The notes beneath the pieces are model-generated. The model did no database searches, was not told where the DNA came from, and saw nothing but the letters and a program-made list of their open reading frames with translations. DNA of 64,000 nucleotides from Pecten maximus (taxonomy: Eukaryota), in the NCBI RefSeq assembly GCF_902652985.1, contig NC_047015.1, positions 30,752,001 to 30,816,000 of the forward strand, in the 5' to 3' direction. The stretch's first letter is position 1; every line of letters starts with the position of its first letter. Both the position numbers and the translations under genes were made by a program. Positions 8,751 to 64,000 of this stretch are shown here, piece after piece.

Positions 8751-11078
8751 AAACAAGAGGACCATGGGCCTTAACGGTCACCTGAGTTAAGAAATATTGA
8801 AGTTAATTTATTTGACCATTGTGCCTCCACCCATTTCAAGGGGTCAGCCAAAGCCAACATATGCATACCATCAAGCTGTCATCCCATGGTGATAATGTTA
8901 ACAAAGTTAAAATGAATTCGAATAGAAATCAAACAATGGTAGTCAAAATTGTGATTTTATATAAACTATAGTAAACTTTATCCCCTCCCCGGGGGAAACA
9001 TGAGGCAGTTAGAATAGGTCACTTGAGACTTTGTCTCGGGTGACCAAAAAAGTTGGAAATGCTAAATTCTATTCCCAACATTGAATATAGTGATAAAGAA
9101 ATCAAAATGAGATGTAGCTAAAGTATTAAATACCCCATTTTTTCTGAGAGTCTTAAGTTTAAAACTCAAGAATTCCACAAAAGTGGATGCGTCACCTGTG
9201 CAGAGAGTTGGGCGATTGCAAGAGTTTTGCATGGAAAATTTTTTTCCATTTTTAGTAAATGACCTTGACCTTTGACCTGGAAAGTAATCCCAAGCAAGTA
9301 CTTGTGGAAATGAAGATCTACATGAAGTTTGAGCTTGATCCGCCAAAGGGAACCGAGTTATCACATGGAAACATCTGTGAGGAAGCGTCGACACCGGCAT
9401 AGTGATACCTATATGTCAACCTGCTTTTTGCAGACAACACAAAAACAGCCGTTAAAGTACCTAGGAGACATTTTGACAATTCTTAGGTAATGAGATGATG
9501 TAAATTTGTGAAGATTCTGTTTGAGAGGTGTTAATATTTGATCATTTCTCAAAATTCAACAAATATACATGACTAATCTACGTTCAAAACATTAAAAATA
9601 TCAGTAAAGGACCTTCTACTGAATATTGACATGAAATTTCAGTTAAAATCCTTTTTCAAAATCAGTATTTAATATCTGTATCGCCAACCTGGTTGGATTA
9701 GGCTAAAATATGTTCAATTTGAATATGTTAATAGCTTTATTTGTTGATTAAAAACAATGCTATATATGGTTATGGGGAAGGGATCTCAACTGCTTCAAAG
9801 ATAAAACCCAGAAACTAAGTGCAGACTCCCTAGGGGCATAAAAAGACCCAGGGATTGCTTTACAATAAGATTGTGTTTAAAGAAACTAAGTACCTTGTGA
9901 TAGGGAAAGACCCCTGGGCCTACTTTTACATCGGGATTGTGTTTATCTCTTTATGTCAAGCAAGGCTATGTATGGTTATGGCAATATGGGGTGGGGATAT
10001 CAATGTTTCAAAGATATAACAAAGAAACAAAGTCCCTTGGGGTAGGAGAAGACCCCAGGGCCTACTTTTACATCATGACTTTGTCTCTTGATGTCCATCA
10101 ATTCTATATATGGTAATGGGGTGGGAATCTCGACAGTTTCAAATATATATCAAAGAAACTTAGTCTCTAAAGGTAGGGAAGACCCCGGGCCTATTTCTAC
10201 AGCCATACCATTTGTAAAATGTTGAATTCCTACCCAATAGGGGTGCTACCATTCAAATACAAACAATACCCATTGCTTAGTTTCAAGGAAGAAGTCGTTT
10301 ATATCAATTTTGTTGAATCCCCCACCCCATAATGATGCTACCAGATAAATAGGAGCAATATCAATTGCTTCGTTTCAGAGAAGTCATTTATATCAATTTA
10401 GCCAAATTGACCCCTTTTGGACCCGCCCCTCAGGGTCAGACCCACCATATGTACAATTTTGAATCCCCACCCAATAATGATGCTACCAGACAAATAGGAG
10501 CAATATACTTCATTTCAGAGAAGAAGTCTTTTATATCAATTTCGCCAAATTGACCCCTTTTGGCCCCGCTCCTCAGCCCCACCATATGTACAATTTTGAA
10601 TCCCCACCCCATAATGTTACCAGACAAATAGGAGCAATATTAAGTGCTTAGTTTCAGAGAAGAAAGTCATTTATATCAATTTAGCCAAACTGACCCCTCT
10701 TGGCCCCAACCCCTCAGGCCCCCCGGGGGTTCAGCCCCACCATTTGTACAATTTTGAATCCAGACCCCATAATGATGCTACCAGGCGAACATAAGTGATA
10801 TCAATTGCTCAGTTTCAGAGAAGTTGTTTATATCAATTAAGCCAAATTGACCTCTTTTGGCCCAACTCCTCAGGCCCCCGGGGGGTTAGCCCCACAATTT
10901 GCAAAAGTTTGAATACCCATGCATCCTATAATGATGCTACCATTAAATATGAGTGATATCAATTGCTTAATTTCAGAGACGTCGTTTACTTCAGTTTAGC
11001 CAAATTGTTGGTGGCAGCCCCACCATTTGTACAATTTTGAATCCCTACCCCATAATGATGATTAGGTGAGCTAATAAA
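8751..11078 (-). mobile_element. Helentron/HINE-type element with internal ~145-150-bp tandem repeats (~10200-11060)
   Basis: Ends aaacaagaggaccatgggcct..tcacctgag and aggtgagctaa (subterminal inverted repeat plus 3' hairpin). Repeats contain tttgaatccccaccccataatgatgctaccag. Appears to contain nested fragments. Confidence 0.7.
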
Positions 11079-11431: not shown

Positions 11432-14400
11432 TTAACTTTTCCTCTTCTTAATTTTGGATTTTTTCATCAAACTTTTCCCACTATCATTTGTTGCAGTTAC
11501 TGAAGACAAATTTTTGCTCTTCTCTGGTGTGGCTTTAGACAACACTTTCTTTCCCTTTTTAGATGCAGCTTTAGAAGATTTAACTTTTTCCATTTCTGGT
11601 GTGACTTCAGATGTCACATTTGTAACAACTTCTGATGTAACTTCAGAAGAAACACTGTCCTTTGTTTTTTTAGTATCTAATGTTTTGCTTTTCTTGTTGG
11701 AATCTTTGCCTTTTTTGAAACTTGTTTTCCTCTTTTTTTTCTCAACCTGTTCAAACTGCATTTCATCATCAGACTCCTCATCCATCTTTCGTTTGGTCGT
11801 TCTCTTTGGTATTTTCTTCCTTCTCATGCCAGTGAATTGTCCGTCATCATCCAGCGTTCCCACTTTGACTTGACCCATATTTGTAACAAGCACATGTCCA
11901 TTCATAAGGGTGCTGATCTCTCCAACCACAGGACTTGGTTTTTCTGGCTTTTTGGGAAATTTCACTTCCTTTTTAGAACCTGAGTAATGGTAAATAATAA
12001 TTACAAACTACAATTCCCTTCAACTACTTATTAACAATTTTCATACATGGTGGCTAAACTTTCTTATATAACCCTTTAATTTTTCCAGTGTTTATGTCAT
12101 TATAATTGATTAATCAATGCAACGACATGAACAAGTATTAGATTCTGTTTATCACCTAACTCATATTCATATGATATTAACAGAAATAACATGTATTTAA
12201 TGTCCCAATAAGGATTTAGACAGGGGAATTTCTACTTGAATAGTACCGATATGTTTTCACTACCAAGACAATCATTTGACAACATTTATGAATGATATCA
12301 CCATATATGCGTTTCATATTATATATGTGAAATGGCCGTATTACATGGCATAACAGGTCAGATATGTAGTTACCAGTAATACAATTAGCCATTATATATT
12401 GTGAAATTAATATTTAAGACGATAAGCTTTACATTACTTACTGAATGTTGCATAAAGAGGAAGAGCAAGGGACTTTTCTGTGCGCACATAAACACTCTGT
12501 ATGTTGGCTGGCCCTCCAGGAAGTGCCACAGATATAGACTCCAATGCTTTCATGACATTTTCAGCCAGCTGCTCCGCCGACATATCCGAGTGCCCTATAG
12601 TTGCTGAACTGTAGAAACACAGGATACCGAACATCAGAGATGGAAATATTCAAAGAAACAATCACAGAGTCTGACATTGGTTGATTACATTTTGGCTTTA
12701 AATCAATTTTATATTACATATAGCAGCATTTAAACCTGGATTTTTTAACTGTTCAATATACTCAGCATTTTAACACTGAGGTACTAGATAGCATTTTGTG
12801 CATTTTAGGTAAGTTAATAAAAATGTATCTGAAAGTAGAATTGAAATCAGAAAAAGGAAAGAAAGTAACATTTGTGTACAATAACTATTATGAAGGAGGA
12901 AATATTTCACATTTATTTAAAGTGCATTTTTTTTCATTTCATAGATCATATTGAAATTGAAGAGAAAATCAACTTGGAGGGTAAACTTATGAGATTTTAT
13001 GATTAATATCAAGATATCTATCAAAACAACTACTTGAATTTTCTGCAGCCTGTGTCTGCTCAAATTTGGGAAATTACATTTATAATTTCTTCAAAATTTA
13101 TCAGATATCTTTTTCCTTAATAACACATTTTTTTTAACTGTGGGAAACATCCTGTTATCAGCTGTTAAACAGTGCAACATTTCACTGCAAAACAATCAAT
13201 ATTTAAAAATCAAACTATGTATTAATAATTAAGAAGTTGATAAAAAACAGATATTCACCTCGATGCTCCATGACCAGTAATTATACATCTGCTGTCATAC
13301 ACCACCTTTTCAATTTCACTTTTTAAGTTTGTTGCTTTCATGTTGACTTGAATTGGATGCCTGAAATAGATATAAGATTTGATATAGCAAATACTCATTA
13401 GAATGTTTATCCTCCTCTACATCACTTCTTGATACTGTACATATGGAATAACTGGTATGCAATAGTATATTGATCTGCAGTCTGTATCCCATTCTATATT
13501 CTTAGTCAGAATGATTGTCAATGTACACACAGAGAATAATCTATGGCAGCTTCATTACAATATCTTATTGTAATGAACATTACCTTAATACATTATCTTA
13601 ATACATTGTACCTCTTAGGGTCTCTGGCCTAATAGTCTTACACTCAACTGATCAAGCTAAAGAAGAATTCTCTCTAGCTGAGAGGTGTATTGCAGCTAGC
13701 ACTTTACCAGGATTACATACTCTCCCATCAGGGAAAAATCACTTGAGTTTCTAATAGGTATGGAGATGGTTTCACAAATAACAATAAGTTTAATTTCCGA
13801 GTCCCTACATGGGTGCCAATTCAAACAATTTAAACAGAGCGGATGATGAATTAAATTTCAATGCCTCTGTTAGGGTTTGAAACCCCGGACCTCTGGATTA
13901 CTAGTCTTGCGCTTAATCGATTGAGCTAAAGAGAAGTTCTCTCTAGCCGAGTGATATATTGCAGCTAGTATTAACAAGGGTTGCGCTTACAAACCTGGAG
14001 GCAAAGTGGTCTAACTAACATAACCAACAATTCCGGAAATATGAATTGACACATCACTAACATTTTTTTCTTTCTATTTGGTTTCATTTTTAAATTTGAT
14101 GATGTGGGTATAAAATATGGAGCCTAACAAAGAGATTGCTTTGCATACTTTTTCTTTCCATAGAAGTTTTTCCCAAGCAAAGAAGGTAAAAGGCGTATGA
14201 CCCTCTCATCTGCCACAAACAGATCAAACATATTGGACAGATTTCGCTTTGCCTCAAATGGCTTATACTCCAGCTTCAGACACTTCAAGGGTATGACCTG
14301 TAAAGTAAAATCAGGACAATTAAATATTGATAAAAAAATGTCTTAATAATTATCCAGAAAATCTAAAATTTTGATATTATTAGTAGTTAACTTGGACACT

Positions 14401-24003: not shown

Positions 24004-24495
24004 ATCTCCCAAACAGATGCCCAATACTTTCTACCTGCGTGTAAAAGTTCCCTTTTAGCCACTTTTACATCATAGCACGTGGAGAGTAGGTAGTAATGTA
24101 ATGGTTTAAACGGATGTCGGTGATCACTTACTCGAATATTATTTACACGTAATTCAAAATATGATGATTCGCCGAGACTTTGTGTTATTATATTATTTCA
24201 TTGTAAAAAATACAAAATTACACCAGGAAAATGTTAGTATTTTTTCGAAATACGCTTATGAATAATAACAAAATGTGAATCTTCCGTAAACGAGCACCTG
24301 TTTCGATTTCTTGGCTTTAGTTTATAATAGCGTAAATAAATCTTTTATGCGCTTGAAGAGCATACAGCTGATCGCACATACAGTTGAGCGCTTAATGTAT
24401 GCGGTTGTATAGGATGTGTTTGGGCAGACGAACAGTGATGGCGAGCCACGTCAGAGAAAAGAATAGTTTGAATTGGGGTGAAATGTAACAGCAAA
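24004..24495. promoter_or_regulatory. Probable shared bidirectional promoter / 5' UTR region of RSL1D1 and CANT1
   Basis: Divergent start codons ~490 bp apart, locally CpG-richer. A possible RSL1D1 5'-UTR intron lies at ~24036-24131 (minus-strand GTAAGT ... cttttacacgcag). Confidence 0.5.
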
Positions 24496-26889
24496 ATGAG
24501 TTCTACCTCATATCCATCGACAGTCCATGACTGGATGCAAGCTATACGACGGCCAGTGCCATACAGAGTTGGCAATGCACGCCTCCATGTCAAAACACGT
24601 ACAGTTGCATATGGGGTGATGTTCATGGCAGCAATTCTTATACTCGTTATTTATATTTTACCCACACAATATATACAACGAAATTGTCCAGATATTTATC
24701 CGGTTTTACATGATTATACTTATCCATTTACATCTCCGTTTAAAAATGAATCTGGGGTTCATTATAAAATAGCTGTTGTAACGGATCTGGATACAGATTC
24801 TAAGAGTAAAAAGGACAAAGATACATGGTTCAGTTACATGTTACATGGAACTTTGTCAATATCTACAGACCAGAAACATGTTAATGTTAATTTTGATTTG
24901 GAGCCAAAAACTCTGAAATCTACGTGGGGTCATGGAGGGCGTGGTATGGAGCTGTCTGAGCTTATTGTATTCAATGGAAAACTCTATACGGTGGATGACA
25001 GGACCGGAGTTGTTTATGAGATCATTGACAACATGGTGGTTCCCTGGGTCGTTCTTACAGATGGTGATGGCAGATCACAGAAAGGTATAACACAAACGTC
25101 ATTGCATATATATATAATCAACAATAGAAGTTGAAGGCAGTTTATATTTTGTAACTAACAAATAGTTTCTTCTTGCTTCATATTCTGACAAAATGCCTAA
25201 TGTTGGAACCAGATGAAACTAAACTTAAAGGTTGTCTAGTCTTTTACCACCTTAATCAACATGACTATGTTTATTGCTAGATTTTGTCTCACCAACTATA
25301 ATGTTGAGTTCTGTCAACATACTCTTATTGTGAACTACTAAGTAGTTCATTGATACATGACCACCAGTAGGCTGCATTCCAATGCCAGTGTAACCTGAGT
25401 TTCCTCTACCTCATAGACATTGTTAATTGGACATTCTGATTGACAGACAGATGTCTGATGTGGGCCATCAAAATGCTTAATGTTTGATACTGGTTTTAAG
25501 ATTTTGGTCCCGTTCTTCCCAATGATCTGTGTGTCTATATTATTTTCCTGCTGTATACATATCTGAGATCTAACATAATGCTGAATTTGACATTAGCATG
25601 GATATAGTAAAATAATCCTATCAGGTAAAAACATGTAGATTGCTTAAAACTTCAAAATCATTTTCTGGTTGATTTGAAATGATTAGGTGGGATTAATGAT
25701 ATCTATTTATATATATTGTTTTAGGAAAAATCACTTTGCACATCATCAAAACAAGCTGAATAAGAAATGTTTGAATGATGTTAATTGTGATTAAAACTAG
25801 AGTGGTAAGGATATATATATAATATATATAGATTTCTAGCTTTGAAAAGGAAATTATATTTGTGTAAACCTGTTACATGCTTCATATTAATGTTGAATTG
25901 TTAACATTACTTTTTTTATTATTATTTTTTTTTACAGGTTTCAAGAGTGAGTGGGCTACAGTCAAAAATGGAAAATTATATGTTGGGGGATTGGGTAAAG
26001 AATGGACAACACAGACCGGGGAAGTAGTCAACTTAAACCCTCAGTGGGTAAAGTCCATCTCAGCCACTGGGCAGGTAGCACACCATGACTGGCATACACA
26101 TTACAATGCCATGAGGAAAGCCACTGGATATGGCCTACCAGGTTTGCAACTGTTTAACTTTGTTTGTGAACCATTGTTTTTTTGATGATCATTTGTTCAA
26201 AAAGCTGTTGAATGTAATCTAATCTAAGATGACCTTTTACAAATTGTCATAGATAAATGAAAGGCTTTACTATGTGTGTAAGGAAACAAGAGTACCATAT
26301 TTTTGAGATCTTTTCTAGGAATCAAACCCTTGAAGGTAAAACGTGCGTGTTAATGCCATCTGACTACCCGAATTGTGTTTTCAGATTGTAGGCTATTCTC
26401 ACCTTCAATTCAAGACTAATCCAGACATTTTCTTTCAGGTTGAAAACTGATCAAGATATTTGCCATGATTGTCCTATTTTCAACAATAGTTTTCTTATTT
26501 ATTACTTTTTTCCTCCAGGATATATGATCCATGAGTCCTCGGTATGGAGTGATATACACAAGCGCTGGTTCTTCCTTCCGCGACGAGCCAGCAAATCCAG
26601 ATATGATGACAAGACAGACGAAAGAAGGGCAACCAACATAATGATAATAGCAAACGACAAATTTGATGATATTGAAATAAGATATATTGGCGTTAAAAAT
26701 GAGTTGAGGGGATTTTCCTCATTCAAATTCATTCCAGGGACAAATGATCAGATGATAGTTGCATTAAAATCAGAGGAAGTAGAAGGAAAAGTTGCATCAT
26801 ACATACTGGTATTTACTGTAAAAGGAGATATCATTCTTCATGATAAGAAAATAGGAGATTTTAAATTTGAAGGAGTAGAATTCATTTGA
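24496..26889 (+). CDS. CANT1: Soluble calcium-activated nucleotidase 1 (apyrase family), 387 aa; exons 24496-25084, 25938-26141, 26519-26889
   Basis: N-terminal TM anchor (VAYGVMFMAAILILVIYIL) and motifs IAVVTDLD, GRGMELSELIVFNGKLYTVDDRTG, GFKSEWATVK..LYVGGLGKEWT, PGYMIHES, WFFLPRRAS, RGFSSFKFIPGT, ALKSEE, KFEGVEFI*. Splice phases are consistent. Confidence 0.97.
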
Positions 26890-34936: not shown

Positions 34937-35930
34937 AACAAGAGATCCCAGAGGGATCTTGGCGCCCACCATTGAATGATCTTTACAGGTTCTATGTCAG
35001 ATTGATCTTCTCTCTATTTTCCCCTTCCTTTTATTAATCTGTGCAAATTGAGAAACATCCCTCAGTACAATCAAGGGAATCTTAACTATATGAAATTTGA
35101 GATTTAGCGATAATGGCTGTTTGTTAGCCAGGTTGTTTTAAGGACAGATTGGTCCCAAAATGAAATACAAGGGACAAAGGGGAACCTACATATGAAATTT
35201 GAGAAAGAATCCTTCAGTACTTTCTGAGAAGTAGCGATAACAAACTTCAATTGTCAAAATCCAAGATGGCTGCCTGTCGGCCATGTTGTTTTCCGATTGG
35301 TCTCAAAATGCAATATGCTTAACTAGGCTCCAAGGGGAACCTACATATGAAATTTGAGAAAGATCCCTTCAGTACTTTCTGAGAAATAGCGATAACAAAC
35401 TTCAATTGTCAAAATCGAAGATGGCTGCCTGTCGGCCATGTTGTTTTCCGATTGGTCTCAAAATGCAATATGCATAACTAGGCACCAAGGGATACCTACA
35501 TATGAAATTTGAGAAAGATCCCTTCAGTACTTTCTGAGAAATAGCGATAACAAACTTCAATTGTCAAAATCCAAGATGGCTGCCTGTCGGCCATGTTGTT
35601 TTCCGATTGGTCTCAAAATGCAATATGCATAACTAGGCACCAAGGGATACCTACATATGAAATTTGAGAAAGATCCCTTCAGTACTTTCTGAGAAATAGC
35701 GATAACAAACTTCAATTGTCAAAATCCAAGATGGCTGCCTGTCGGCCATGTTGTTTTCCGATTGGTCTCAAAATGGAATATGCATAACTAGGCACCAAGG
35801 GATACCTACATATTAAATTTGAAAAAGATCCCCTCAGTACCTTCTGAGAAATAGCGATAACAAGAATTGTTTACGGACGACGGACGCAGGGCGATTTGAA
35901 TAGCCAACCATCTGATGATGGTGGGCTAAA
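34937..35930 (-). mobile_element. HINE/Helentron-type element carrying ~5 copies of a 155-bp repeat
   Basis: aaacaagagatcccagagggatcttggcgcc hairpin end. Period 155 measured (caaac at 35241, 35396, 35551, 35706). Other end has ggacgacggacg microsatellite and tagccaaccatctgatgatggtgggctaaaa inverted repeat. Confidence 0.88.
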
Positions 35931-47117: not shown

Positions 47118-48706
47118 TTTTAGCTCACCTGGACCGAATGTCCATTGATATTATGTCATGGCGCGGCGTCTGTCGTCCGTCCGTCGTCATTTGCTTCAAA
47201 TCGCTACTAGTAAAAAAGTTCTTATTGGATTTTGACCAGATTTGGTCAGAAACATCCTTGGCAGAAGGGGATAAGATTTTGCATAAATGGTGACTCTGAC
47301 CCTGGAGGGGCAGGGCCAAATAGGGGAAATTGAGGTAATGCCTTTAAATCGCTACTAGTCATAAAGTTGTGAATGGATTTGAATTAATTTGGTCAAAAAT
47401 ATCATTTGGAGAAGGGTAACAGATTTTGCATAAACGGTGACGCTGACCCCCAGGGGCCCAATAGGGGAAATAGATGTAATGCCTTTAAATCGCTACTAGT
47501 CACAAATTTATGAATGGATTTGAACATAATTTGATCAGAAACATCCTTGGGGGAAGGGGAACAGATTTTGCATAAATGACGATTCTGACCTTTAAGGGCC
47601 AGACGGGCGGGACCCAATAGGGGAAATAGAGGTACACTGTAATTTCTTTAAATGGCTACTTGTCAAAAAGTTCTTTGGATTTTGACCAAATTTAGTCAGA
47701 AACATCCTCTGCCAAAGGGGATAAGATTTTGCATAAATGGTGACTCTGACTCCCAAGGGGCCAGAGAGGCGAGGCCTAATAGGGGAAATAGAGGTATTTG
47801 TTTTGTTTTGTTTTGTTTAACATCCTATTAACAGCCAGGGTCAATTAAGGACGTGCCAGGTTTTGGACGTGGAGGAAAGCCGGAGTACCGGAGAAAAAAC
47901 AACAGCCTACGGTCAGTACCTGGCAACTGCCCCACATAGGTTTCGAACTCGCAACCCAGAGGTGGAGAAATAGAGGTAATTTCTTTAAATCGCTACTAGT
48001 GATAAAATTCTTATTGGATTTTGACCAAATTTAGTCAGAAACATCCTCTGCCAAAGGGGATAAGATTTTGCATAACTGGTGACTGACCCCAGAGGGGCGG
48101 GGTCGGATGGGGAAATTAAGGCAATTCCGTTAAATCACTAGTCAAAATTATGAATGGATTTGAACCCAATTTGATCAGAAACATCCTTGGGGGAAGGGGA
48201 ACAGATTTTGCATAAATGGTGACTGTAACCCCCCTGGGGCATGAGGGGCCAAAATGTCCTGCATGGATTTGAACCAAATTTGGTCAGAAAGATCCTTTGG
48301 GGAAAGGAAAAAGATTTTGCATAAGTGGTTGCTATGACCCTCCATTCCATAACCAGCATCGCTGGAAGTTAAGGGATAAACAAAATTTCTTATGTAGAAA
48401 TAGGGCCAAGGGTCTTTTCCCACTCTAAGGGACTTAGTGTCTTTAAACACAATTATGTTGTAAAAACCACCCCTAAGTTGTTTTTTTTACACACTTAGAG
48501 AGTCTGGACTATGTAATTTCTTTAAAGCAGTTCAGATCCCCACACTATAACCATATATAGCATTGTTCAAGATTGACAAATAGAGCTACGTATTAACGAA
48601 TTGAACATGAACATTATTTTGACGTTTGGTCAAATCCAACCAGGTGAGCGATACCAGAGACATATAAATGTCTCTGGCGATACAGGCCCCATGGGCCTCT
48701 TGTTTT
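47118..48706 (+). mobile_element. HINE/Helentron-type element with ~150-bp internal tandem repeats
   Basis: TTTTAGCTCACCTG 5' end, cgtctgtcgtccgtccgtcgtc microsatellite, repeats of aaatcgctactag..ttttgcataaatggtgac, 3' caggtgagcg..aggcccatgggcctcttgttt. Confidence 0.88.
47797..47966 (-). mobile_element. 5'-truncated SINE inserted into the HINE array, with 12-bp TSD
   Basis: GAAATAGAGGTA is duplicated at 47785-47796 and 47967-47978. (CAAAA)n tail and conserved ggtactccggctttcctcca SINE domain on the minus strand. Confidence 0.8.
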
Positions 48707-49177: not shown

Positions 49178-51490
49178 ACCCGGCAACCCCACACCTGACA
49201 ATCTCGCATCGACAATCCCACACCCGATAACCCCACAACCAACAACCCACACCTGACAATCTCACACCGATAACCCCACACCCGACAACCCCATACCAGA
49301 CAACTCAACACTCGACAACCCCACACCTGACGATCTCACACCAAACAACCCCACACCGGAAAATCCCACACCCAACAACCCTCACCCAACAACCCCACAC
49401 CCGACAACCCCACACCCAACAACCCCACATCCGACAACCCACACCTGACAATCTCACACCCAACAACCCCACACCCGACAACCCCACACCCGACAACCCC
49501 ACACCCAACAACCCCACACCCAACAACCCCTCACCCAACAACCCCATACCCAACAACCCCATACCCAACAACCACACACCAGACAATCTCACACCCAACA
49601 ACCCCACACCCAACAACCCCAAACTGGAAAATCCCACACCTAACAACCCCACATCCGACAACCCCACACCCAACAACCCCACACCCGACAACCCCACACC
49701 AAACAACCCCATACCCAACAACCCCAAACCAGAAAATCCCACACCCAACAACCCACACCCGACAACCCCACAACAAACAACCCCATACCCAACAACCACA
49801 CACCCAACAACCCCACACCCGACAACCCCACACCCAACAACCCCACACCCAACAACCCCATACCCGACAACCCCATACCCGACAACCCCACACCCGACAA
49901 CCCACACCAAACAATCCCATACCCAACAACCACACACCCAACAACCCCACACCCGACAACCCACACCCAACAACCCCACTACCGACAACCCCACACCCAA
50001 CAACCCCATACCCAACAACCCCATACCCGACAACCCCACACCCGACAACCCCACACCCAAACAATCCCATACCCAACAACCACACACCTGACAATCTCAC
50101 ACCCAACAACCCCACACCCAACAACCCCACACCCAACAACCCCACACCCCAACACCCCACACCGACAACCCCACACCCCACAACAACCCCACACCCAACA
50201 ACCCCATACCCAACAAACCCCATACCCAACAACCCCACACCCGACAACCCACACCAAACAACCCCATACCCAACACACAACAACCACACCCAACACAACC
50301 CCACACCCAACAACCCCACACCCAACAACCCCACACCCGACAACCCCACAACCAACAACCCCACACCCGACAACCCACACCCAAACAACCCCACACCCAA
50401 CAACCCCACACCCGACAAACCCCACACCAAACAACCCCATACCCAACAACCACACACCAACAACCCACCCAACAACCCCAAACCGGAAAATCCCACACCC
50501 AACAACCCCACACCCAACAACCCCACACCCGACAACCTCACACCAAACAACCCCATACCCAACAACCCCAAACCGGAAAATCCCACACCCAACAACCCCA
50601 CACCCAAAAACCCCACACCGGAAAATCCCACACCCAACAACCCCACACCCAACAACCCCACATCCGACAACCCCACAACCGACAATCCCACACCCTTCAA
50701 TCTCACATCCAACAACCCCCACACCTGACAATCTCACACCCAACAATCCCACACCCAACAACCCCTCACCCAACAACCCCTCACCCAACAACCCCACACC
50801 CAACAACCCCTCACCCAACAACCCCACACCAAACAACCCCATACCCAACAACACCTGACAATCTCACACCCAACAACCCCACACCCAACAACCCCTCACC
50901 CAACACCCCAACACCCGACAACCCCATACCCAACAACCAACCCCACACCTGACAATCTCACACCCAACAACCCCACACCCAAAACCCCAAACCGGAAAAT
51001 CCCACACCCAACAACCCCACAACCCACAACCCCACAACCGACAACCCCACACCCTTCAACCTCACATCCAACAACCCCACACCTGACAATCTCACACCCA
51101 ACAATCCCACACCCAACAACCCCTCACCCAACAACCCCTCACCCAACAACCCCACACCCAACAACCCCTCACCCAACAACCCCTCACCCGACAACCCCTC
51201 ACCCGACAACCCCACACCCAACAACCCCTCACCCGACAACCCCACACCCAACAACCCCACACCTGACAATCCCACACCCAACAACCCCACATCCGACAAC
51301 CCCACACCCAACAACCCCACATCCGACAACCCCAAACCGGAAAATCCCACACCTGACAATCTCACACCCAACAACCCCACACCGGAAAATCCCATACCCA
51401 ACAACCCCACACCCAACAACCCCATACCCAACAACCCCACACCCAACAAGCCCACACCCGGCAATCCCACATCCGACGATCCCACACCCT
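49178..51490. repeat. 15-bp minisatellite, ~150 copies, strongly strand-asymmetric
   Basis: Unit CCCCACACCCAACAA with variants; minus strand reads (TTGTTGGGTGTGGGG)n. Confidence 0.97.
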
Positions 51491-52145
51491 ACAATCCAGA
51501 TTGCGAGGTTGTGGGGCATATCAAATATCACATGTAAAAAAGAGAGTGTATCAACACGCTAGGCTACATATATATATAGATGACTAAACAAAAAAAATCC
51601 TATCTTATCCACATCACCACGGAAGTACGAGTGGTCATACTTCTAAAAAAAATGATGATATCAAGAGGCCAGGAAACATTGCTTATTGTTTACTTATTAC
51701 TCATAAGAGCCACGATATCGTATTAAACTATATGTCCCTTCCTGTCGGGACGAAGGTGACCGGATAGAGGGTACTCGGAAAATGAGTTTTCAATGTAGTA
51801 GGATGAATTATATAACCCACGAAATATACTAAGACTACGGTCTTCATAGACCACAAAGTCCATGTAACAAGAATTTCTCCTTATATTCCAGTTTTATATA
51901 CCATCCGTGAAAACCATACTTTATGATTTTTTTTTCTTCACGGAAATGAACTAAACCGAAATTAATTATCGCATCGTTTTATTATTCGATTTTATGAAAC
52001 TGAACATGACGGCATACATGGAATAAAGATTTGATGTGGCATATGTCCAGATGACCCAACACATTAATATAAGTGACATAAAAGTAACGCTATCTCGTAG
52101 AGGTCTCAGATTATTTCCTAAGTTATGTATTGGTTACTTATCACA

Positions 52146-52316
52146 TACAGTATATATGTTTGATACAGTATATAAATATGTATTATATATGTTTGATACA
52201 GTATATAAATATGTATTATATATGTTTGATACAGTATATAAATATGTATTATATATGTTTGATACAGTATATAAATATGTATTATATATGTTTGATACAG
52301 TATATAAATATGTATG
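52146..52316. repeat. 33-bp AT-rich minisatellite, ~5 copies
   Basis: Unit TATATATGTTTGATACAGTATATAAATATGTAT. Confidence 0.95.
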
Positions 52317-52798
52317 ATATTTTACGTATACTTAACAAATTACACGGAAGTTAAATTGAAATCAAACACCTACCATTCTATACGATTTAGATTTAGAATG
52401 TAATAACAGTTTAAACTCATTTTAATGTACACCTGTATATACTAGGTACTTATGATTAAATATAGAGTTATTCAGTAAGGTCTCTGTAGAAATGAATCGT
52501 CGACTTGTTTTGTGTAAATTACAGATGTACTGGCCGTTTGACGAAGGTGCTAGCTACGTACATATATATATGTATACACATCGTCCATGTACTATACTGT
52601 AGATTCTATATACCCCAGTACTACATTTTACATGGTTATAGTTTTTAATACCCATGCAATTATTATCTCTCCATTTACTTTTATAACCAACAAAACTTTA
52701 TATTTTATTGAAAATATAGCATTTTCATGCAATCATGTTGTTGCTTGATGTGAACGTTTCACGGAACCCGTTATAGTAATGGCAAAAGTGTGATGACC

Positions 52799-52822: not shown

Positions 52823-53128
52823 CAAAACTCTCCCCACTTAGTGACACACGTATGTATTTACTATTGGTTACTTTCTAATACAAAAGATGATGCACATATA
52901 TATACATTCATACGGAACTAAATGTCAGAAAAAAACTTAAACAGAAAAATGAAATAAGACAATGGTGGACAAATTTATCGTCATGACGAGGCATAGCATT
53001 GCTAGACCGATGGATAGCCGCATACTTAGTGTTGACTAAATTGAAGACATTTGTCATTAAGCAGACGAAACCATTTCTCGTATATCAAACTCGAAGTTGA
53101 AGTGGGAAGTGCCAGAATAATCAGGAAC

Positions 53129-53136
53129 ATGGACAG
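53129..53136 (+). CDS. Putative first coding exon of the cGLR (ATG GAC AG|gtaaga)
   Basis: Good start context aacATGG and strong donor AG|GTAAGA. Phase 2 matches the phase-2 acceptor at 57305, giving MDRISTEKGRLDDKGSRRMSVLL. Confidence 0.6.
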
Positions 53137-53440
53137 GTAAGATATAAAAACACAGATCATGACAAAACAAAAACAAAACAACAACGTTTATCTCGCATTT
53201 CCAGTTCATTCTACTTGGTAATTGTATGTTGCCATGTGAACGCCAGTTTCTCCTGTTTTGTGAATACACTAAAAACAACAACAACACCAAGATTACTCCA
53301 AGACTGGCTGTTGAGTGGATGTTCATGGTATCCGGTAAGATTAATTGAATTAATGAAATAATACATTATCACTAGATATGACTGTTATCACTGGATATGT
53401 CCGGAAACCTTATAACAAAGAACCACATGTGGGGTCTTTA

Positions 53441-56400
53441 GACGTAATCGTTCGTACCGTATGTACCGGTACATGTGATGACAGGAGACGTCATCGTTCG
53501 TACCGTATGTAGAGGTATGTGATGACAGGAGACGTCATCGTTCGTACCGTATGTAGAGATACATGTGATGACAGGAGACGTCATCGTTCGTACCGTATGT
53601 AGAGGTATGTGATGACAGGAGACGTCATCGTTCGTACCGTATGTAGAGGTATGTGATGACAGGAGACGTCATCGTTCGTACCGTATGTAGAGGTACATGT
53701 GATGACAGGAGACGTCATCGTTCGTACAGTATGTAGAGATACATGTGATGACAGAAGACGTCATCGTTCGTACCGTATGTAGAGGTATGTGATGACAGGA
53801 GACGTCATCGTTCGTACCGTATGTAGAGATACATGTGATGACAGGAGACGTCATCGTTCGTACCGTATGTAGAGGTACATGTGATGACAGGAGACGTCAT
53901 CGTTCGTACCGTATGTAGAGATACATGTGATGACAGGAGACGTCATCGTTCGTACCGTATGTAGAGATACATGTGATGGACAGGAGACGTCCATCGTTCG
54001 TTACGGAGACGTCATCGTTCGTACCGTATGTAGAGATACATGTGATGACAGGAGACGTCATCGTTCGTACCGTATGTAGAGGTACATGTGATGACAGGAG
54101 ACGTCATCGTTCGTACCGTATGTAGAGATACATGTGATGACAGGAGACGTCATCGTTCGTACCGTATGTAGAGATACATGTGATGACAGGAGACGTCATC
54201 GTTCGTACCGTATGTAGAGGTATGTGATGACAGGAGACGTCATCGTTCGTACCGTATGTAGAGGTACATGTGATGACAGGAGACGTCATCGTTCGTACCG
54301 TATGTAGAGATACATGTGATGACAGGAGACGTCATCGTTCGTACCGTATGTAGAGATACATGTGATGACAGGAGACGTCATCGTTCGTACCGTATGTGGA
54401 GGTACATGTGATGACAGGAGACGTCATCGTTCGTACCGTATGTACCGGTACATGTGATGACAGGAGACGTCATCGTTCGTACAGTATGTAGAGGTATGTG
54501 ATGAGAGGAAACGTCATCGTTCTTACCGTATGTAGAGGTACATGTGATGACAGGAGATGTCATCGTTCGTACCGTATGTAGAGGTACATGTGATGACAGG
54601 AGACGTCATCATTCGTACCGTATGTAGAGATACATGTGATGACAGGAGACGTGATCGTTCTTACCGTATGTAGAGGTACATGTGATGACAGGAGATGTCA
54701 TCGTTCGTAACGTATGTAGAGATACATGTGATGACAGGAGACGTCATCGTTCTTACCGTATGTAGAGATACATGTGATGACAGGAGACGTCATCGTTCGT
54801 ACCTTATGTAGAGGTATGTGATGACAGGAGACGTCATCATTCGTACCGTATGTAGAGGTATGTGATGACAGGAGACGTCATCGTTCTTACCGTATGTAGA
54901 GATATGTGATGACAGGAGACGTCATCGTTCTTACCGTATGTAGAGATATGTGATGACAGGAGACGTCATCGTTCTTACCGTATGTAGAGGTATGTGATGA
55001 CAGGAGACGTCATCGTTCTTACCGTATGTAGAGGTATGTGATGACAGGAGACGTCATCGTTCTTACCGTATGTAGAGGTATGTGATGACAGGAGACGTCA
55101 TCGTTCTTACCGTATGTAGAGATATGTGATGACAGGAGACGTCATCGTTCTTACCGTATGTAGAGATATGTGATGACAGGAGACGTCATCGTTCTTACCG
55201 TATGTAGAGGTATGTGATGACAGGAGACGTCATCGTTCTTACCGTATGTAGAGATACATGTGATGACAGGAGACGTCATCATTCGTACCTTATGTAGAGG
55301 TATGTGATGACAGGAGACGTCATCATTCGTACCGTATGTAGAGATCCATGTGATGACAGGAGACGTCATCGTTCGTACAGTATGTAGAGATACATGTGAT
55401 GACAGGAGACGTCATCGTTCGTACCGTATGTAGAGGTATGTGATGACGAGAAGTCATCGTTCGTACCATATGTAGAGATACATGTGATGACAGGAGACGT
55501 CATCGTTCGAGCCGTATGTTGAGGTACATGTGATGACAGGAGACGTCATCGTTCGTACCGTATGTAGAGATACATGTGATGACAGGAGACGTCATCGTTC
55601 GTACCGTATGTGGAGGTACATGTGATGACAGGAGACGTCATCGTTCGTACCGTATGTACCGGTACATGTGATGACAGGAGACGTCATCGTTCGTACAGTA
55701 TGTAGAGGTATGTGATGAGAGGAAACGTCATCGTTCGTACCGTATGTAGAGGTACATGTGATGACAGGAGACGTCATCGTTCGTACCGTATGTAGAGATA
55801 CATGTGATGACAGGAGATGTCATCGTTCGTACCGTATGTAGAGGTACATGTGATGACAGGAGACGTCATCATTCGTACCGTATGTAGAGGTACATGTGAT
55901 GACAGGAGACGTCATCGTTCGTACAGTATGTAGAGATACATGTGATGACAGGAGACGTCATCGTTCGAGCCGTATGTTGAGGTACATGTGATGACAGGAG
56001 ACGTCATCGTTCGTACCGTATGTAGAGATACATGTGATGACAGGAGACGTCATCGTTCGAAACGTATGTAGAGGTACATGTGATGACAGGAGACGTCATC
56101 GTTCGTACAGTATGTAGAGATACATGTGATGACAGGAGACGTCATCGTTCGTACCGTATGTAGAGGTACATGTGATGACAGGAGATGTCATCGTTCGTAC
56201 CGTATGTAGAGGTACATGTGATGACAGGAGACGTCATCATTCGTACCGTATGTAGAGATACATGTGATGACAGGAGACGTCATCATTCGTACCGTATGTA
56301 GAGATACATGTGATGACAGGAGACGTCATCGTTCGTACAGTATGTAGAGATACATGTGATGACAGAAGACGTCATCGTTCGTACCGTATGTAGAGGTATG

Positions 56401-57191
56401 TGATGACGAGAAGTCATCGTTCGTACCGTATGTAGAGATACATGTGATGACAGGAGACGTCATCGTTCGAGCCGTATGTTGAGGTACATGTGATGACAGG
56501 AGACGTCATCGTTCGTACCGTATGTAGAGATACATGTGATGACAGGAGACGTCATCGTTCGAAACGTATGTAGAGGTACATGTGATGACAGGAGACGTCA
56601 TCGTTCGTACAGTATGTAGAGATACATGTGATGACAGGAGACGTCATCGTTCGTACCGTATGTAGAGGTACATGTGATGACAGGAGACGTCATTGTTCGT
56701 ACCGTATGTAGAGGTACATGTGATGACAGGAGACGTCATCGTTCGTACCGTATGTAGAGATACGTGTGATGACAGGAGACGTCATCGTTCGTACAGTATG
56801 TAGAGATACATGTGATGACAGGAGACGTCATCGTTCGTACCGTATGTAGAGGTACATGTGATGACAGGAGACGTCATCGTTCGTAACGTATGTAGAGATA
56901 CATGTGATGACAGGAGACGTCATCGTTCGTAACGTATGTAGAGATACATGTGATGACAGGAGACGTCATCATTCGTACCGTATGTAGAGGTGCATGTGAT
57001 GACAGGAGACGTCATCGTTCGTAACGTATGTAGAGATACATGTGATGACAAGAGACGTCATCGTTCGTGCCGTATGTAGAGGTCCGGTACGTGTGATGAC
57101 AGGAGACGTCATCGTTCGTACAGTATGTAGAGATACATGTGATGACAAGAGACGTCATCGTTCGTGTCGTATGTTGAGGTATGTGATGACA
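53441..57191. repeat. 44/46-bp CpG-rich minisatellite, ~80 copies, inside putative cGLR intron 1
   Basis: Unit GACGTCATCGTTCGTACCGTATGTAGAG(A/G)T(AC)ATGTGATGACAGGA. Confidence 0.98.
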
Positions 57192-57305
57192 GATGCATCA
57201 ATTACATGGTTCGGACAATATTAACAGCATTGTTTGTGATAATTAACTCTGATGATGAACCGTAGTTCCTTTTTTCGTCATATTGATTATGATGTTTCTT
57301 TGTAG

Positions 57306-59322
57306 GATCTCTACAGAGAAAGGGAGACTAGATGACAAGGGGAGTAGAAGGATGTCTGTTCTTTTATCGAGATATCTGGACCGGGAATTTCACCTTGCAC
57401 AAAATGTAGTGAACTTCAAGAGGAAAAGTCTGCTCGCGACTGAATGGTTGTCAAATGATGACAATAGTAATATGCATCAGTTTCATACTGGGAGTCGCTC
57501 GGAGGGCGTCAGCATGCTCAATTCTGATATTGATATAATGTATATAGATAGACTTGTAACAGTATTGTACCCTGACCAGCCTATAACCCAAAACAACCAA
57601 CACAAGACAATTCTGCATATAAGAGGGGTGGACAATTGCCGACCTGGTTTTGTAGCTCTTGAGTTGTGTCGCGGAGGAAAGAAATGTCGACGAACACTAT
57701 TGTACTCACTAGTAGAAGTTGGCGGTAAAGTATTTGTCTCAAGTGATATGTTCAGAGAACGAAACCGCATGCAACTAAAAGTAGGAAAGGTGCTAAGCAG
57801 GTCCAATGGTCCAAGTAACACACTCGATATTTTGTCAGGTATTGACACCGTCGTTTGCTTCCCGTGTGATAATTGGCCCAGAGAAGCCGATGATTGGATA
57901 TCTCGCACACGTCTTCATGGTTGGCCAAGTGAAAACTTGATTAGCAAAATTCGGCAAAAAGGCTGTCACCTTGTCCCAATAGGAGACAAATGCTACGAGA
58001 ACACGGGTTTACAGTGGCGGCTCACATTTGTAACTGCGGAGCGACGTTTGGTCCATTCACTTAGTCACATCCAATTCCAAGTGTACATCCTGCTGAAATA
58101 TTTCTTAAAACAGATACAAGGAACATTGAAGGACACCATTGGTGATGCAGATATACTGTGCTCATATTTTATGAAAACTCTGATATTTTTCGCAGTCGAA
58201 AACTCCCGCCATCTGTTCTGGCAGGAGAGGAACTTGTTTTACTGTTTCTGGTTTTGCTTCAATATACTGATCGAGTGGGTATTGGTAGGGTACTGTCCAA
58301 ACTATTTCATCCCTACCAACAACATGTTCCAAAGGAAAGTCCACGGGCAACACCAACAAAAGCTATTGGAAATTCTAAACAAATATCACAGGATGAAATG
58401 GATGTGTCTCTCAGTTGGGAAGTACTTTCCTCCCATTGCAAACAGTTTGTTCAATGCCAAGACACAAGCAGAACTTCAGTTTTCAAATGTTACACAGGAA
58501 ATCGACTTTAATATGGATATCGCAGTCAGGAGCAGTTGCAGGAAAGGTACTATTGATACTCGGAATCCATTGAAAACGATGGCGAAGGCGCTACATTTAA
58601 TGTCGAAATCACAAACACAATGTGACGAGGTCAGGTCATACTGTTGTGCCATGGAAATGCTGTCCCAAATAGCAGGCAACCGCGTTAATCAAGGAAACGC
58701 AGAACCAGTCACAGGCAACAAATCAAGGTATACAAATATTAGAAAATGCAAACGTTGGATGATTCCGTGGGCATCACTCGGAACTAATATGCTGTATCTT
58801 GCTACTTTTTACTTCCTGTTAGGAGACTTCAGAAAATCACTGCAGATGTGCGAAGAAGTGGCGAAGCTTGCGTCTTGTTTCAAGAATAATGTGATACATA
58901 GATCACAAGAAGAAAAGGCAAGATATGTTCAGAAATACTCTGGACATGGACACACCTTACTATCTAGGTGTAAGAAAGAATTCATCGACATCTTAATGTT
59001 TTCAAAAGAAGAACCTTGGCTATGTCTTCCCCAGCTTCATTCAGAACTATCGAATTGCACACATCACATACATATCCCGCCCCTTCCTTATGCCCTGTTT
59101 CTGTCATTTCTGTGCCGGCATGAACTTGGAGACACCAGAAGGCGTGATGCTGCACTAGCCGACCTCATAGTGGTCAAGTATGATCGCGAGCAAGGTGGAC
59201 ATCGGAATAGGATGTTAATAACATTTCTGGAAATATGTTACCAAACTATAGGAGACACTCGCAGGGCAGCCAGGGCCTACCAGGACTCGCAAGACGCTTT
59301 GGCTGCTGGTAACTTTCCGTAG
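57306..59322 (+). CDS. cGAS-like receptor (cGLR): Mab-21 family nucleotidyltransferase with helical TPR-like C-terminus, main coding exon (674 aa in total with the putative exon at 53129-53136)
   Basis: NTase signature TGSRSEG-x5-SDIDIM; third acidic residue in GIDTV; Mab-21 motifs WP..A..WI.R...WP, GCHLVPIG, WRLTF..AE..L, CSYFMKT, CPNYFIP.NNMF. TPR-like helices LYLATFYFLLGDFRKSL and LEICYQTIGDTRRAARAY. Acceptor tttctttgtag at 57295-57305; uninterrupted ORF. Confidence 0.9.
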
Positions 59323-60184
59323 ATGTGAAAGCTGAACTTGTACCAATTTGCGAGGATGGTTATGTGTGCTTAATTTAGATAAGAAGTGATAGGTATTATT
59401 TCAGTAAAAAAAAAAAAAATATATATATAATTAAGGAGATATCTATAAAACAATATAATGTGTTAGGCCTACGATGACTTTCTTGTGACCAGGAGCCGTT
59501 CAGCACAAAATTCCCAGTGTAAAATTTTAATGTTTCAACGTGTGATATGAGTAGTAACTTCTGTCAATGTTTCAGAGGACACTGACAATCAGAAAACGCT
59601 AGGTCCGTTTAATTGTTTTTTCCCCCATTGATTCTATTTCATTAGCTCTGTCGACATTTTGATTTGTTTTCTGTTGTATTCCAAAAAAGCATAATGCCAA
59701 GCGTACAATGAAACTGCTGGTTGATTATTTACCATGTTATAGAGGTACTACGCAAAATAAAACACAGACCCACTTGTATGACGAATAATCAAGTACCCAA
59801 TCCGCCTTGAAATAGCAGGAGATAAACCTCATCTTTGTTTCCCAAAGTGATTCAATTAAAGCACTTAATGATTGCTTGCAGACCAAATATTGAGATGTGC
59901 AGATGGGTGTTACTATAACTCCTTAGTGACTGTTGTGATGAATGATAGCAAATAGAGAGCACCCATACACATTGAGTACATACTCGACACGATCATACTG
60001 TCAGCTATTCATAATACAGTAAAACTTAACAAATCCCACCTGATCAGAGGGTTAAGTTCTTTATATAAGAAATTCGTTATGGGATCAAACAATATGAACG
60101 TGCAAGTTTGGGCCAAATTTTGTGATTTTGATTTACTTCGTAAAAATCCGAAATTTGAATTACTAAATAGTAAGACTGTCTAAC

Positions 60185-61300
60185 GTTTTCCTTACTGTAT
60201 TACTGTATAACAAACCGTTGTTACGTTTTCCTTACTGTATTACTGTATAACAAACCGTTGTTACTTGATTTCTTTACTGTATTACTATATACCACACTGG
60301 TATTACTTGATTTCTTTACTGTATTACTGTATAACTCACATGTGTAACTTGATTTCTTTACTGTATAACTCACAAGTGTAACTTGATTTCTTTACTGTAA
60401 TCTGTATATCACACATGTGTAACTTGATTTCTTTACTGTATTACTGTATAACACACTGGTATAACTTGATTTCTTTACTGTATTACTGTATAACACAACA
60501 GTATAACTTGATTTCTTTACTGTATTACTGTATAACACACTGTTATAACTTGATTTCTTTACTGTATCACTGTATAACACACTGTTATAACTTGATTTCT
60601 TTACTGTATCACTGTATAACACACTGTTATAACTTGATTTCCTTACTTTATTACTGTATAACACACTGTTATAACTTGATTTCTTTACTGTATTACTGTA
60701 TAACACACTGTTATAACTTGATTTCTTTACTGTATTACTGTATAACACACTGTTATAACTTGATTTCTTTACTGTATCACTGTATAACACAACAGTATAA
60801 CTTGATTTCCTTACTTTATTACTGTATAACACACTGTTATAACTTGATTTTTTTACTTTATTACTGTATAACACACTGTTATAACTTGATTTCTTTACTG
60901 TATCACTGTATAACACACTGTTATAACTTGATTTCTTTACTGTATTACTGTATAACACACTGTTATAACTTGATTTCTTTACTGTATCACTGTATAACAC
61001 AACAGTATAACTTGATTTCTTTACTGTATAACTGTATAACACACTGTTATAACTTGATTTCTTTACTGTATTACTGTATAACACACTGTTATAACTTGAT
61101 TTCTTTACTGTATTACTGTATAACACACTGGTATAACTTGATTTCTTTACTGTATTACTGTATAACACAACAGTATAAATTGATTTCTTTACTGTATTAC
61201 TGTATAACACACTGTTATAACTTGATTTCTTTACTGTATTACTGTATAACACACTGTTATAACTTGATTTCCTTACTTTATTACTGTATAACACACTGGT
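60185..61300. repeat. 42-bp minisatellite, ~26 copies, downstream of the cGLR
   Basis: Unit TATAACTTGATTTCTTTACTGTATTACTGTATAACACACTGT. Confidence 0.97.
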
Positions 61301-61725: not shown

Positions 61726-64000
61726 TTTTAGCCCAACATCATCAGATGGTGGGCTATTCAAATCGCCATGCGTCCGTGGTCCGTCTGTCCGTCACTCCAT
61801 CCGTAAACAATTCTTGTTATCGCTATTTCTCAAAAAGTACTGCAGGGATCTTTCTCAAATTTCATATGTAGGTTCCCCTTGGTGCCTAGTTATGCATATT
61901 GCATTTTGAAACCAATCGGAAAACAACATGGCCGACAGGCAGCCATCTTGGATTTTGACAATTGAAGTTTGTTATCGCTATTTCTCAGAAACTAATCAAG
62001 GGATCTTTCTGAAATTTCATATATAGGTTCCCCTTGGTGCCTCGTTATGCATATTGCATTTTGAGACCAATCGGAAAATAACATGGCCGACAGGCAGACA
62101 TCTTGGATTTTGACAATTGAAGTTTGTTATCGCTATTTCTCAGAAACCAATTAAGGGATCTTTCTGAAATTTCATATGTAGGTTCCCCTCGGTGCCTTGT
62201 TATGCATATTGCATTTTGAGAATAATCGGAAAGCAACATGGCCGACAGGCAGCCATCTTGGATTTTGACAATTGAAGTTTGTTATTGCTATTTCTCAGAA
62301 AGTACTGAAGGGATCTTTCTCAAATTTCATATATAGGTTCCCCTTGGTACCTAGTTATGCATATTGCATTTTGAGACCAATCAGAAAACAACATGGCCAA
62401 CAGGCAGCCATCTTGGATTTTGACAATTGACGTTTGTTATCGCTATTTCTAAGAAAGTAGTGAAGGGATCTTTCTCAAATTTCATATTTAGGTTCCCCTT
62501 GGTGCCTAGTTATGCATATTGCATTTTGAGACCAATCAGAAAACAACATGGCCGACAGGCAGCCAGCTTGGATTTTGACAATTGAAATTTGTTATCGCTA
62601 TTTCTCAGAAAGTAATAAAGGGATCTTTCTCCAATTTCATATGTAGGTTCCCCTCGGTGCCTAGTTATGCATATTGCATTTTGAGACTAATCGGAAAACA
62701 ACATGGCCGACAGGCAGCCATCTTGGATTTTGACAATTGAAATTTGTTATCGCTATTTCTCAGAAAGTAAAGAAGGGATCTTTCTCCAATTTCATATGTA
62801 GGTTCCCCTCGGTGCCTAGTTATGCATATTGCATTTTGAGACTAATCGGAAAACAACATGGCCGACAGGCAGCCATCTTAGATTTTGACAATTGAAACTT
62901 GTTATCGCTATTTCTAAGAAAGTGCTGAAGGGATCTTTCTCAAATTTCATATGTAGGTTCCCCTCGGTGCCTAGTTATGCATATTGCATTTTGAGACCAA
63001 TCGGAAAACAACATGGCCGACAGGCAGCCAGCTTGGATTTTGACAATTGAAGTTTGTTATCGCTATTTCTCAGAAAGTAATAAAGGGATCTTTCTCCAAT
63101 TTCATATGTAGGTTCCCCTCTGTGCCTAGTTATGCATATTGTATGCATTTTGAGACCAATTGGAAAACAACATCGCCGACAGGCAGCCATCTTGGATTTT
63201 GAGAATTGAAGTTTGTTATCGCTATTTTTCAGAAAGTACTGAGGGGATCTTTCTCAAACTTTTTTTGTAAGTTCCTCTTGGTCTGTAGTTCTGCATATTG
63301 CATCTTGGGACCAATAGGAAAACAACATGGCCGACAGGCAGCCATCTTGGATTTTGACAATTGAAGTTTGTTATCGCTATTTATCAGAAATTGCTGAAAG
63401 GATATTTCTGAAATTTCATTTGTAGGTTGCCCTCTGTGCCTAGTTATGCATATTGGATTTTGAGACCAGTCAGAAAACAACCTGGCCGACAGGCAGCCAT
63501 CTTTTATTTTGACAATTGAAGTTTGTTATCGCTATTTTACAGAAGGTACTGAAGGGATCTTTCTCAAATTTCATATGTAGGTTCCCCTCGGTGCCTAGTT
63601 ATGCATATTGCATTTTGAGACTAATCGGAAAACAACATGGCCGACAGGCAGCCATCTTGGATTTTGACAATTGAAATTTGTTATCGCTATTTCTCAGAAA
63701 GTAAAGAAGGGATCTTTCTCAAATTTCATATGTAGGTTCCCCTCGGTGCCTAGTTATGCATACTGCATTTTGAGACTAATCGGAAAACAACATGGCCGAC
63801 AGGCAGCCATCTTAGATTTTGACAATTGAAACTTGTTATCGCTATTTCTAAGAAAGTGCTGAAGGGATCTTTCTCAAATTTCATATGTAGGTTCCCCTCG
63901 GTGCCTTGTTATGCATATTGCATTTTGAGACCAATCGGAAAACAACATGGCCGACAGGCAGCCAGCTTGGATTTTGATAATTGAAGTTTGTTATCGCTAT
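61726..64000 (+). mobile_element. HINE/Helentron-type element with an expanded 155-bp satellite array (>=14 copies, runs off the window)
   Basis: ttttagcccaacatcatcagatggtgggctatt 5' inverted repeat and gtccgt microsatellite. Same 155-bp unit as 34937-35930, in the opposite orientation. Confidence 0.9.

Follow-up and report, generated by a model that had tools for sequence, protein, structure and literature searches.

What does the cGAS-like receptor (cGLR) gene LOC117330030 of the scallop Pecten maximus recognize, and is it a working sensor or a copy entering decay? The gene lies in the 64,000-nucleotide stretch of DNA analysed here (contig NC_047015.1, positions 30,752,001 to 30,816,000; the window, from whose first letter positions are counted below), which a preliminary description had proposed to hold an active receptor with a ligand-binding or autoinhibitory C-terminal domain like the tetratricopeptide repeat (TPR). 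We find that LOC117330030 encodes a full-length cGAS-fold protein with an intact catalytic triad, and that its paralogue family is under strong diversifying selection beside the invariant aspartates, a pattern repeated in two disjoint clades. The strongest signal falls in the N-lobe of the nucleotidyltransferase as well as in the tail, and was missed in the preliminary description. The gene itself is not new, being already catalogued; what appears to be new is the family-level diversifying pattern.

Translation of the joined 2025-nt coding sequence matches the 674-aa protein XP_033744143.1 letter for letter, and the exon-2 protein contains all the motifs that had been quoted for this locus (GSRSEG, SDIDIM, GIDTV, WRLTF and LEICY). 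The full Mab-21 body claimed for it is recognized by Pfam, with Mab-21 (E 8e-11) and Mab-21_C (E 3e-12) both over cut-off. In the full-length model, built from a 77-sequence alignment (predicted local distance difference test, pLDDT, 92; predicted template modelling score, pTM, 0.91), residues 19-382 overlay best on mouse cGAS (5xzb; Z 28.5, root-mean-square deviation 2.9 A over 303 residues; predicted model), Foldseek returns structural homology to cGAS/cGLR at E 9e-11, and MAB21L1 matches more weakly than cGAS and the coral enzyme Sp-cGLR1. Among the 77 homologues, G65 is conserved in 76, S66 in 74, and D77 and D79 in all, and the family profile aligns D183 to the aspartate of SVDI in mouse cGAS and of SVDL in Sp-cGLR1, so that D77, D79 and D183 fall on the catalytic acids of both enzymes. 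The G[S/G] loop and acidic triad by which cGLRs are recognized (Li et al., 2023, PMC9980059; consulted in part, as were the other papers cited below) are present as G65-S66, D77, D79 and D183; the triad is complete, in contrast to the incomplete active site of the MAB21L1 type, and the cGAS Zn-ribbon stretch corresponds to a gap in the alignment, which sets the protein apart from the vertebrate type. The cGLR identity originally assigned to the gene is thus upheld by the aligned, intact triad and the cGAS fold.

The bivalve expansion of the family, likewise noted from the outset, is evident in the P. maximus genome (918 Mb searched): a core search gave 125 matches, at least 42 of which, among the best 69 of the 125, have a stop-free frame of at least 660 aa, and Li et al. 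count 61 cGLR and 3 STING genes in this species (PMC9980059). Codon tests covered the 22 full-length copies that were left of the first 30 loci once 8 with shorter frames had been excluded, with branch lengths scaled from a one-ratio tree and code that gave the same likelihood and omega, the ratio of nonsynonymous to synonymous substitution rates, as IQ-TREE (-30099.0, 0.386). The site-class test yielded twice the log-likelihood difference (2dlnL) of 186.5, with about 15% of sites at omega above 1; the maximum in 30 null simulations was 6.7. For replication, 30 of the 42 copies were placed in two disjoint clades of 16 and 14, with LOC117330030 and 11 others excluded, and 2dlnL reached 238.6 and 102.7, respectively (204.4 and 85.5 with F61). 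Site rates were correlated between the clades (Spearman 0.67), and 30 sites had a posterior above 0.9 in both (Fisher p 3e-24), of which the N-lobe has 19 and the tail 11; no C-lobe site (191-378) reaches 0.95 in any run. Along the catalytic strands variable and fixed residues alternate: 59/61/63, 78/80/82 and 182/184/186 vary, whereas 77/79/81 and 183/185 are fixed. Further sites lie on helices 35-52 (48 and 52) and 149-162 (156, 159, 160 and 162). Position 78 takes 18 kinds of residue in 63 scallop proteins and is F or Y in 3, and among the 15 enzymes picked as active in the published screen, 13 have E-[FY]-D there, as read by eye (PMC9980059). In a comparison of proteins, not a codon test, the 22 N-lobe sites set on P. 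maximus (the 19 shared ones plus 80, 82 and 184) were carried over to other scallop species: all 10 sister-paralogue pairs were less alike at these sites (for example 5/21 and 6/21, against 84% and 88% for the background), as were seven of nine cross-species pairs.

In a strand, neighbouring residues point to opposite sides, and because the variable positions alternate with fixed ones, they point away from the metal site. In cGAS, the strand face opposite the metal site packs against the two helices, which here carry variable sites as well. Our inference is that the rear of the N-lobe carries a diversified ligand site, to which the patches in the tail may add. Such a location fits the published proposal that cGLRs diversify in the ligand surface on their back face (PMC9980059, discussion; PMC8410604), though the canonical groove is on the spine and Zn-ribbon side. 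The diversifying sites likely mark where family members recognize their triggers; that they form one ligand site falls just short of an even chance. With little better than even confidence, we read LOC117330030 as a ligand-gated immune sensor feeding scallop STING, with its trigger bound at the variable N-lobe surface. The trigger would bind this surface on the non-catalytic side of the N-lobe, probably together with the tail, and the ligand-bound enzyme would then make a cyclic dinucleotide for scallop STING. By analogy with characterized relatives, enzymatic activity with STING as the target is quite probable, and STING_LBD exons over cut-off occur on two contigs of the genome; 2'3'-cGAMP, the commonest product in the published screen, would be the likeliest one here, an assignment to which we give slightly less than even weight. 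A bolder extension, which we regard as doubtful, is that the cGAS scaffold has become a repertoire of variable receptors in scallops. On this view the rear face of the catalytic beta-sheet, together with the two helices that flank it, would form an open groove with positively selected floor and walls, and each of 40-60 enzymes would recognize its own pathogen molecule, probably something other than generic nucleic acid, and signal to two or three STING proteins. In classical cGAS, the back of the sheet and the flanking helices are taken up by hydrophobic packing. Most animal cGLRs are orphans, and unknown triggers are the key limitation named by the main cGLR screen (PMC9980059); the replicated list of diversifying residues shows where to look for ligand recognition, and the map makes the orphan-ligand question testable.

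Several observations weigh against a sensor gated at the variable N-lobe surface. A single pocket would rest on strand alternation and on the packing of cGAS, and there is little or no diversifying signal in the parts that make up the canonical nucleic-acid groove, namely the C-lobe and the first half of the spine. Two of the nine cross-species pairs show no lower identity at the N-lobe sites, and hydrophobic residues still account for 89-94% at positions 78 and 80 in a set of 66 mussel relatives, so that polar variation is not universal; 37 more distant library matches vary again. The codon models leave out gene conversion, synonymous-rate variation and multi-base mutations. XP_033744143.1 departs from the literal motif h[QT]GS X8-20 [DE]h[DE]h X50-90 h[DE]h in its spacing of 101, in the H that precedes TGS and in the T that follows D183; the curation of Li et al. 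evidently did not apply the motif literally, because the protein stands in their table despite the mismatch. Finally, three near-full-length relatives screened with pooled nucleic acids (samples 81-83, of which 83 appears by eye to belong to this scallop subfamily) are outside the 15 picked as active (PMC9980059), which may reflect poor expression.

The alternative that survives best is an ordinary cGLR activated by double-stranded (ds) RNA or dsDNA through the canonical spine groove, in which the variable sites record escape from viral or microbial inhibitors and not the choice of ligand. Selection driven by antagonists is familiar from cGAS and OAS. The charge of LOC117330030 agrees with such a trigger: its core isoelectric point (pI) of 9.39 is the highest of the 77, and segment 120-170 has a net charge of +8, +7 and +5 in the three orthologues of its group, against a median of -1. 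This basic segment overlaps the loop equivalent to site C of human cGAS, with R168 aligned to R302 (residues of the human KRKR loop as given in PMC8365253), and Li et al. associate a pI above 8.5 with nucleic-acid sensing (PMC9980059). Because the core pI is the highest of the set and the basic segment is kept in the orthologues, we tentatively favour a nucleic acid or another polyanion as the trigger of this copy, although we would not give it an even chance. As a whole the explanation is unlikely: the median core pI of the family is 7.6, with 15 of 77 above 8.5, the variable positions include hydrophobic motif positions of cGAS-type enzymes, none of the three relatives mentioned above entered the active set when screened with pooled nucleic acids, and no trigger is known for Sp-cGLR2, which is among the two active enzymes of great length (PMC9980059).

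Alternatively, the tail could serve mainly as an autoinhibitory lid or guard module, the enzyme being freed when a pathogen factor binds or cleaves it. The whole-chain pTM implies fixed packing of tail on core, at least in the model, the tail alone models worse (pLDDT 80, pTM 0.74, from a shallower alignment), it almost always accompanies the core (among 60 long new library matches to the tail, 47 also contain the core and the other 13 are multi-repeat matches), and two diversifying patches lie within it; with the N-lobe carrying roughly two in three of the diversifying sites common to both clades, however, we hold this role to be decidedly improbable as the main one. Still less do we expect the variable residues to govern which substrate the enzyme takes or which product it makes (different cyclic nucleotides, linear ones, or some other target that is nucleotidylated) and not what triggers it. 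Many of them are at most one residue from a catalytic aspartate or, as 67 and 72, in the activation loop, and cGLR products do vary (PMC9980059), but the residues on the strand face of the aspartates (79, 81, 183 and 185) are fixed, and there are only 2-3 STING genes for the 40-60 enzymes.

Early decay had been suspected from WRLTF and LEICY. FastTree places LOC117330030 in a fully supported clade with P0003 (69%), which clusters with an Argopecten irradians protein, and with the Mizuhopecten protein P0004 (60%), so that full-length orthologues exist in two further scallop genera. On the 22 genomic copies, omega for the branch to LOC117330030 is 0.217, far from 1 (p 3e-22) and below the background of 0.397 (p 1e-4), with 0.083 for residues 191-378 and 0.207 for 591-674 (the last 80 aligned codons); as a long-term average, this value would let very recent decay escape detection. 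The two motif departures say little, because T243 of WRLTF, found in two of the 77 rows, is shared with the Argopecten orthologue (WRITF), and E645 of LEICY, private to this protein among the 77 (H in P0004), sits in a repeat that is altered in all three orthologues. These end 31-32 residues past L644, without the closing helix that most relatives keep, and the relaxation of the last repeat across the group is an old trait. A decaying or non-enzymatic copy can therefore hardly be entertained: the unique G645E, the 16 departures at 173 conserved columns (median 10) and the many broken copies in the genome are outweighed by the low omega, which holds in the last codons too, by the spliced transcript and by the full-length orthologues, which have 23 and 20 departures themselves.

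Table 1. Features of LOC117330030 and their window coordinates.
Feature	Coordinates	Strand	Basis or details
Exon 1 (5' untranslated region, UTR, and first 8 coding bases)	52997..53136	+	5' end at or before 52997; contigs X3 (52997-53137) and X6 (53017-53137) continue into exon-2 letters
Upstream open reading frame (ORF) of 9 codons in 5' UTR	53010..53039	+	translation
GT-AG intron, 4169 nt, interrupting codon 3	53137..57305	+	donor GTAAGA, acceptor TTTGTAG; junction in two runs from two studies
Intronic 46-bp tandem repeat (satellite), 82 copies	53440..57192	.	repeat scan
Exon 2 coding part, residues 3-674 and stop	57306..59322	+	ORF; portions covered by contigs from 4 runs
cGAS/Mab-21 nucleotidyltransferase body, residues 19-382, without Zn-ribbon insertion	57352..58443	+	structure match; Pfam; alignment gap
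N-lobe diversifying region	57439..57849	+	sites 48, 52, 58, 59, 61, 63, 67, 72, 78, 130, 131, 135, 156, 159, 160, 162, 177, 180, 182; 80, 82, 184 in one clade
Activation loop G65-S66 through metal-binding D77 and D79	57490..57534	+	conserved in 77 homologues
Third acidic residue D183	57844..57846	+	74/77
TPR-type helical solenoid with small beta-hairpin insertion, residues 379-674	58432..59319	+	models; structural matches; family TPR_12 matches
Diversifying tail patch, residues 409-422	58522..58563	+	clade tests
Diversifying tail patch, residues 588-592 (hairpin)	59059..59073	+	clade tests
Last TPR-like helix pair, residues 638-670, off consensus (W638R, V640L, G645E), without capping helix	59209..59307	+	family alignment
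Likely 3' UTR	59323..60100	+	contig cover to at least 60100; AATAAA at 59756; contigs cannot show transcript ends

The gene consists of two exons (Table 1), with the ATG at 53129, 8 coding bases before the intron and the TAG at 59320-59322. The claim of an uninterrupted ORF holds for exon 2, where the frame is open from stop to stop over 687 codons (57259-59322), but not for the whole interval, 4.2 kb of which is intron. One X3 contig aligned to exon 2 has a loose end consisting of exon-1 letters, as expected of a splice junction, and the X3 and X6 contigs aligned to exon 1 run on into exon 2; because contigs of two studies cross this junction, LOC117330030 is transcribed and spliced as read, the spliced contigs giving no level or tissue. 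None of the runs listed with matching contigs is registered as RNA, and the case for transcription is that of the spliced contigs. Gaps in the exon-2 cover and runs X1 and X4, in which exon-1 contigs are absent, are uninformative. At 53081, in the 5' UTR downstream of the short upstream ORF, 2 bases are missing from both spliced contigs, and one X5 contig (depth 3.2) has G for A at 59140, changing R615 to G, the common residue of the paralogues, which is possibly an allele or an error.

The tail proved longer than the preliminary description had it, about 295 residues and not about 250, as the cGAS fold ends near residue 382. Its TPR-like character is suggested by the modelled TPR-type helix pairs, less so by Pfam, in which TPR_12 stays under the cut-off in XP_033744143.1 (E 0.014; 16-19 bits versus 30.1); a TPR_12 match at E<=0.01 occurs in the tails of 19 of 22 family members. 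The best structural matches are mostly to TPR proteins, at Z up to 9.8, a range common for helical repeats, and none is prominent: the solenoids of TOM70, LGN, KLC1, OGT and HOP, which resemble the tail in their helical-repeat fold, head the list at Z 9-9.8, and weak sequence matches were obtained to CTPR and HOP and, at E 0.027, to IFIT1. Foldseek with the tail found no match at E<=0.001, and the ESM Atlas returned only unnamed mollusc clusters and one Mab-21 cluster. Judged from the models, 'TPR-like' seems a fair label for a degenerate solenoid, from which no particular relative or function follows. The scallop tail profile matches 125 of 130 proteins tested, mostly from mussel, at E<1e-5, which indicates a bivalve-wide tail. 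The Mytilus relatives (for example P0086) form a mussel expansion with the same core and tail and a conserved N-terminal extension of about 100 residues that the scallop copies do not have. A Ylistrum model (P0028, 819 aa) has a signal-peptide-like start and a PF07648 (Kazal) domain before the cGLR part, and is possibly a merged gene model.

Table S1 of Li et al. (2023; PMC9980059, preprint version) lists both XP_033744143.1 and its Mizuhopecten orthologue; XP_033744143.1 was not among the proteins screened. The paper mentions cGLRs with TPRs in its text and in the Figure 1C legend, and its Table S2 has 51 TPR rows, including some scallop accessions, but assigns these two proteins a Mab-21 domain and nothing else; because the 295-aa tail is unannotated there, automatic domain calls would seem to undercount cGLRs with appended domains. 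No selection analysis of cGLRs appears in the sections of PMC9980059 consulted, TPR and bivalve terms led to nothing relevant in the parts seen of a choanoflagellate cGLR preprint and of PMC10732462, and a literature search of limited coverage found no publication on selection in, or function of, bivalve TPR-cGLRs. Vertebrate cGAS and Sp-cGLR1 (PDB 8GJY) share with XP_033744143.1 the two-lobed fold over residues 19-382 and the aligned triad; the scallop protein differs from them in its low identity (about 20%), the absence of the Zn-ribbon, D-x-D in place of E-F-D, the longer spacing from D79 to D183 and the added solenoid. Among the 15 active enzymes, Sp-cGLR2 of Stylophora (712-aa construct) and Cv-cGLR2 of oyster (631-aa) are by eye the only two with a D-x-D-x-M strand and not E-[FY]-D (PMC9980059). 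They are also the two longest constructs, and resemble LOC117330030 in motif and length. Sp-cGLR2 makes 2'3'-cGAMP and has a predicted acidic surface, in contrast to the basic one of XP_033744143.1; Cv-cGLR2, to judge from the numbering, is probably one of six ligand-independent enzymes. The Crassostrea TRADD-N proteins (PMC8195603) likewise combine a Mab-21/cGAS domain with following TPRs in a bivalve lineage expansion, but carry N-terminal HEPN, Ig and DED-TRADD-N domains that XP_033744143.1 does not have.

Many contigs of the genome carry copies of the family, which form clusters on C11, C14 and C8, and some full-length copies on small contigs may be alternative haplotypes. The triad is acidic at all three positions in 40 of the 42 full-length copies; the other two, L044 (N at 183) and L045 (A at 77), are candidate non-enzymatic members. 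The clusters on C11 (2-5 Mb and 12.8-15.1 Mb), C14 (32-37 Mb) and C8 (7.5-12.8 Mb) mix intact and broken copies in a birth-and-death pattern, and nearly all copies have their coding region in a single long exon. LOC117330030 itself does not stem from a tandem cluster or a recent duplication: it shares 55-59% identity with its closest paralogues, and about 18 Mb separate it from the next copy on the contig.

The neighbours of LOC117330030 in the window are housekeeping-type genes. Exons at 938-2274 (+) match Pfam RINT1_TIP1 and belong to a RINT1-like gene. On the opposite strand, Ribosomal_L1 exons (12437-12649 and 14127-14342) and a lysine-rich single-copy ORF (11435-12007) probably form a single gene (11435-14342, -), which we take to be RSL1D1-like, and an Apyrase (PF06079) gene of three exons at 24472-26889 (+) is presumably CANT1-like. 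LOC117330030 is hemmed in by satellites of 15, 33, 46, 42 and 155 bp (49212-51494, 52151-52320, 53440-57192, 60187-61298 and 61814-64000, respectively), and repeat units of about 155 bp also occur at 7362-8307, 10313-11007, 35180-35863 and 47194-47796. Long ORFs at 49-51.5 kb and 60.4-61.3 kb were rejected as genes, being artefacts of these repeats.

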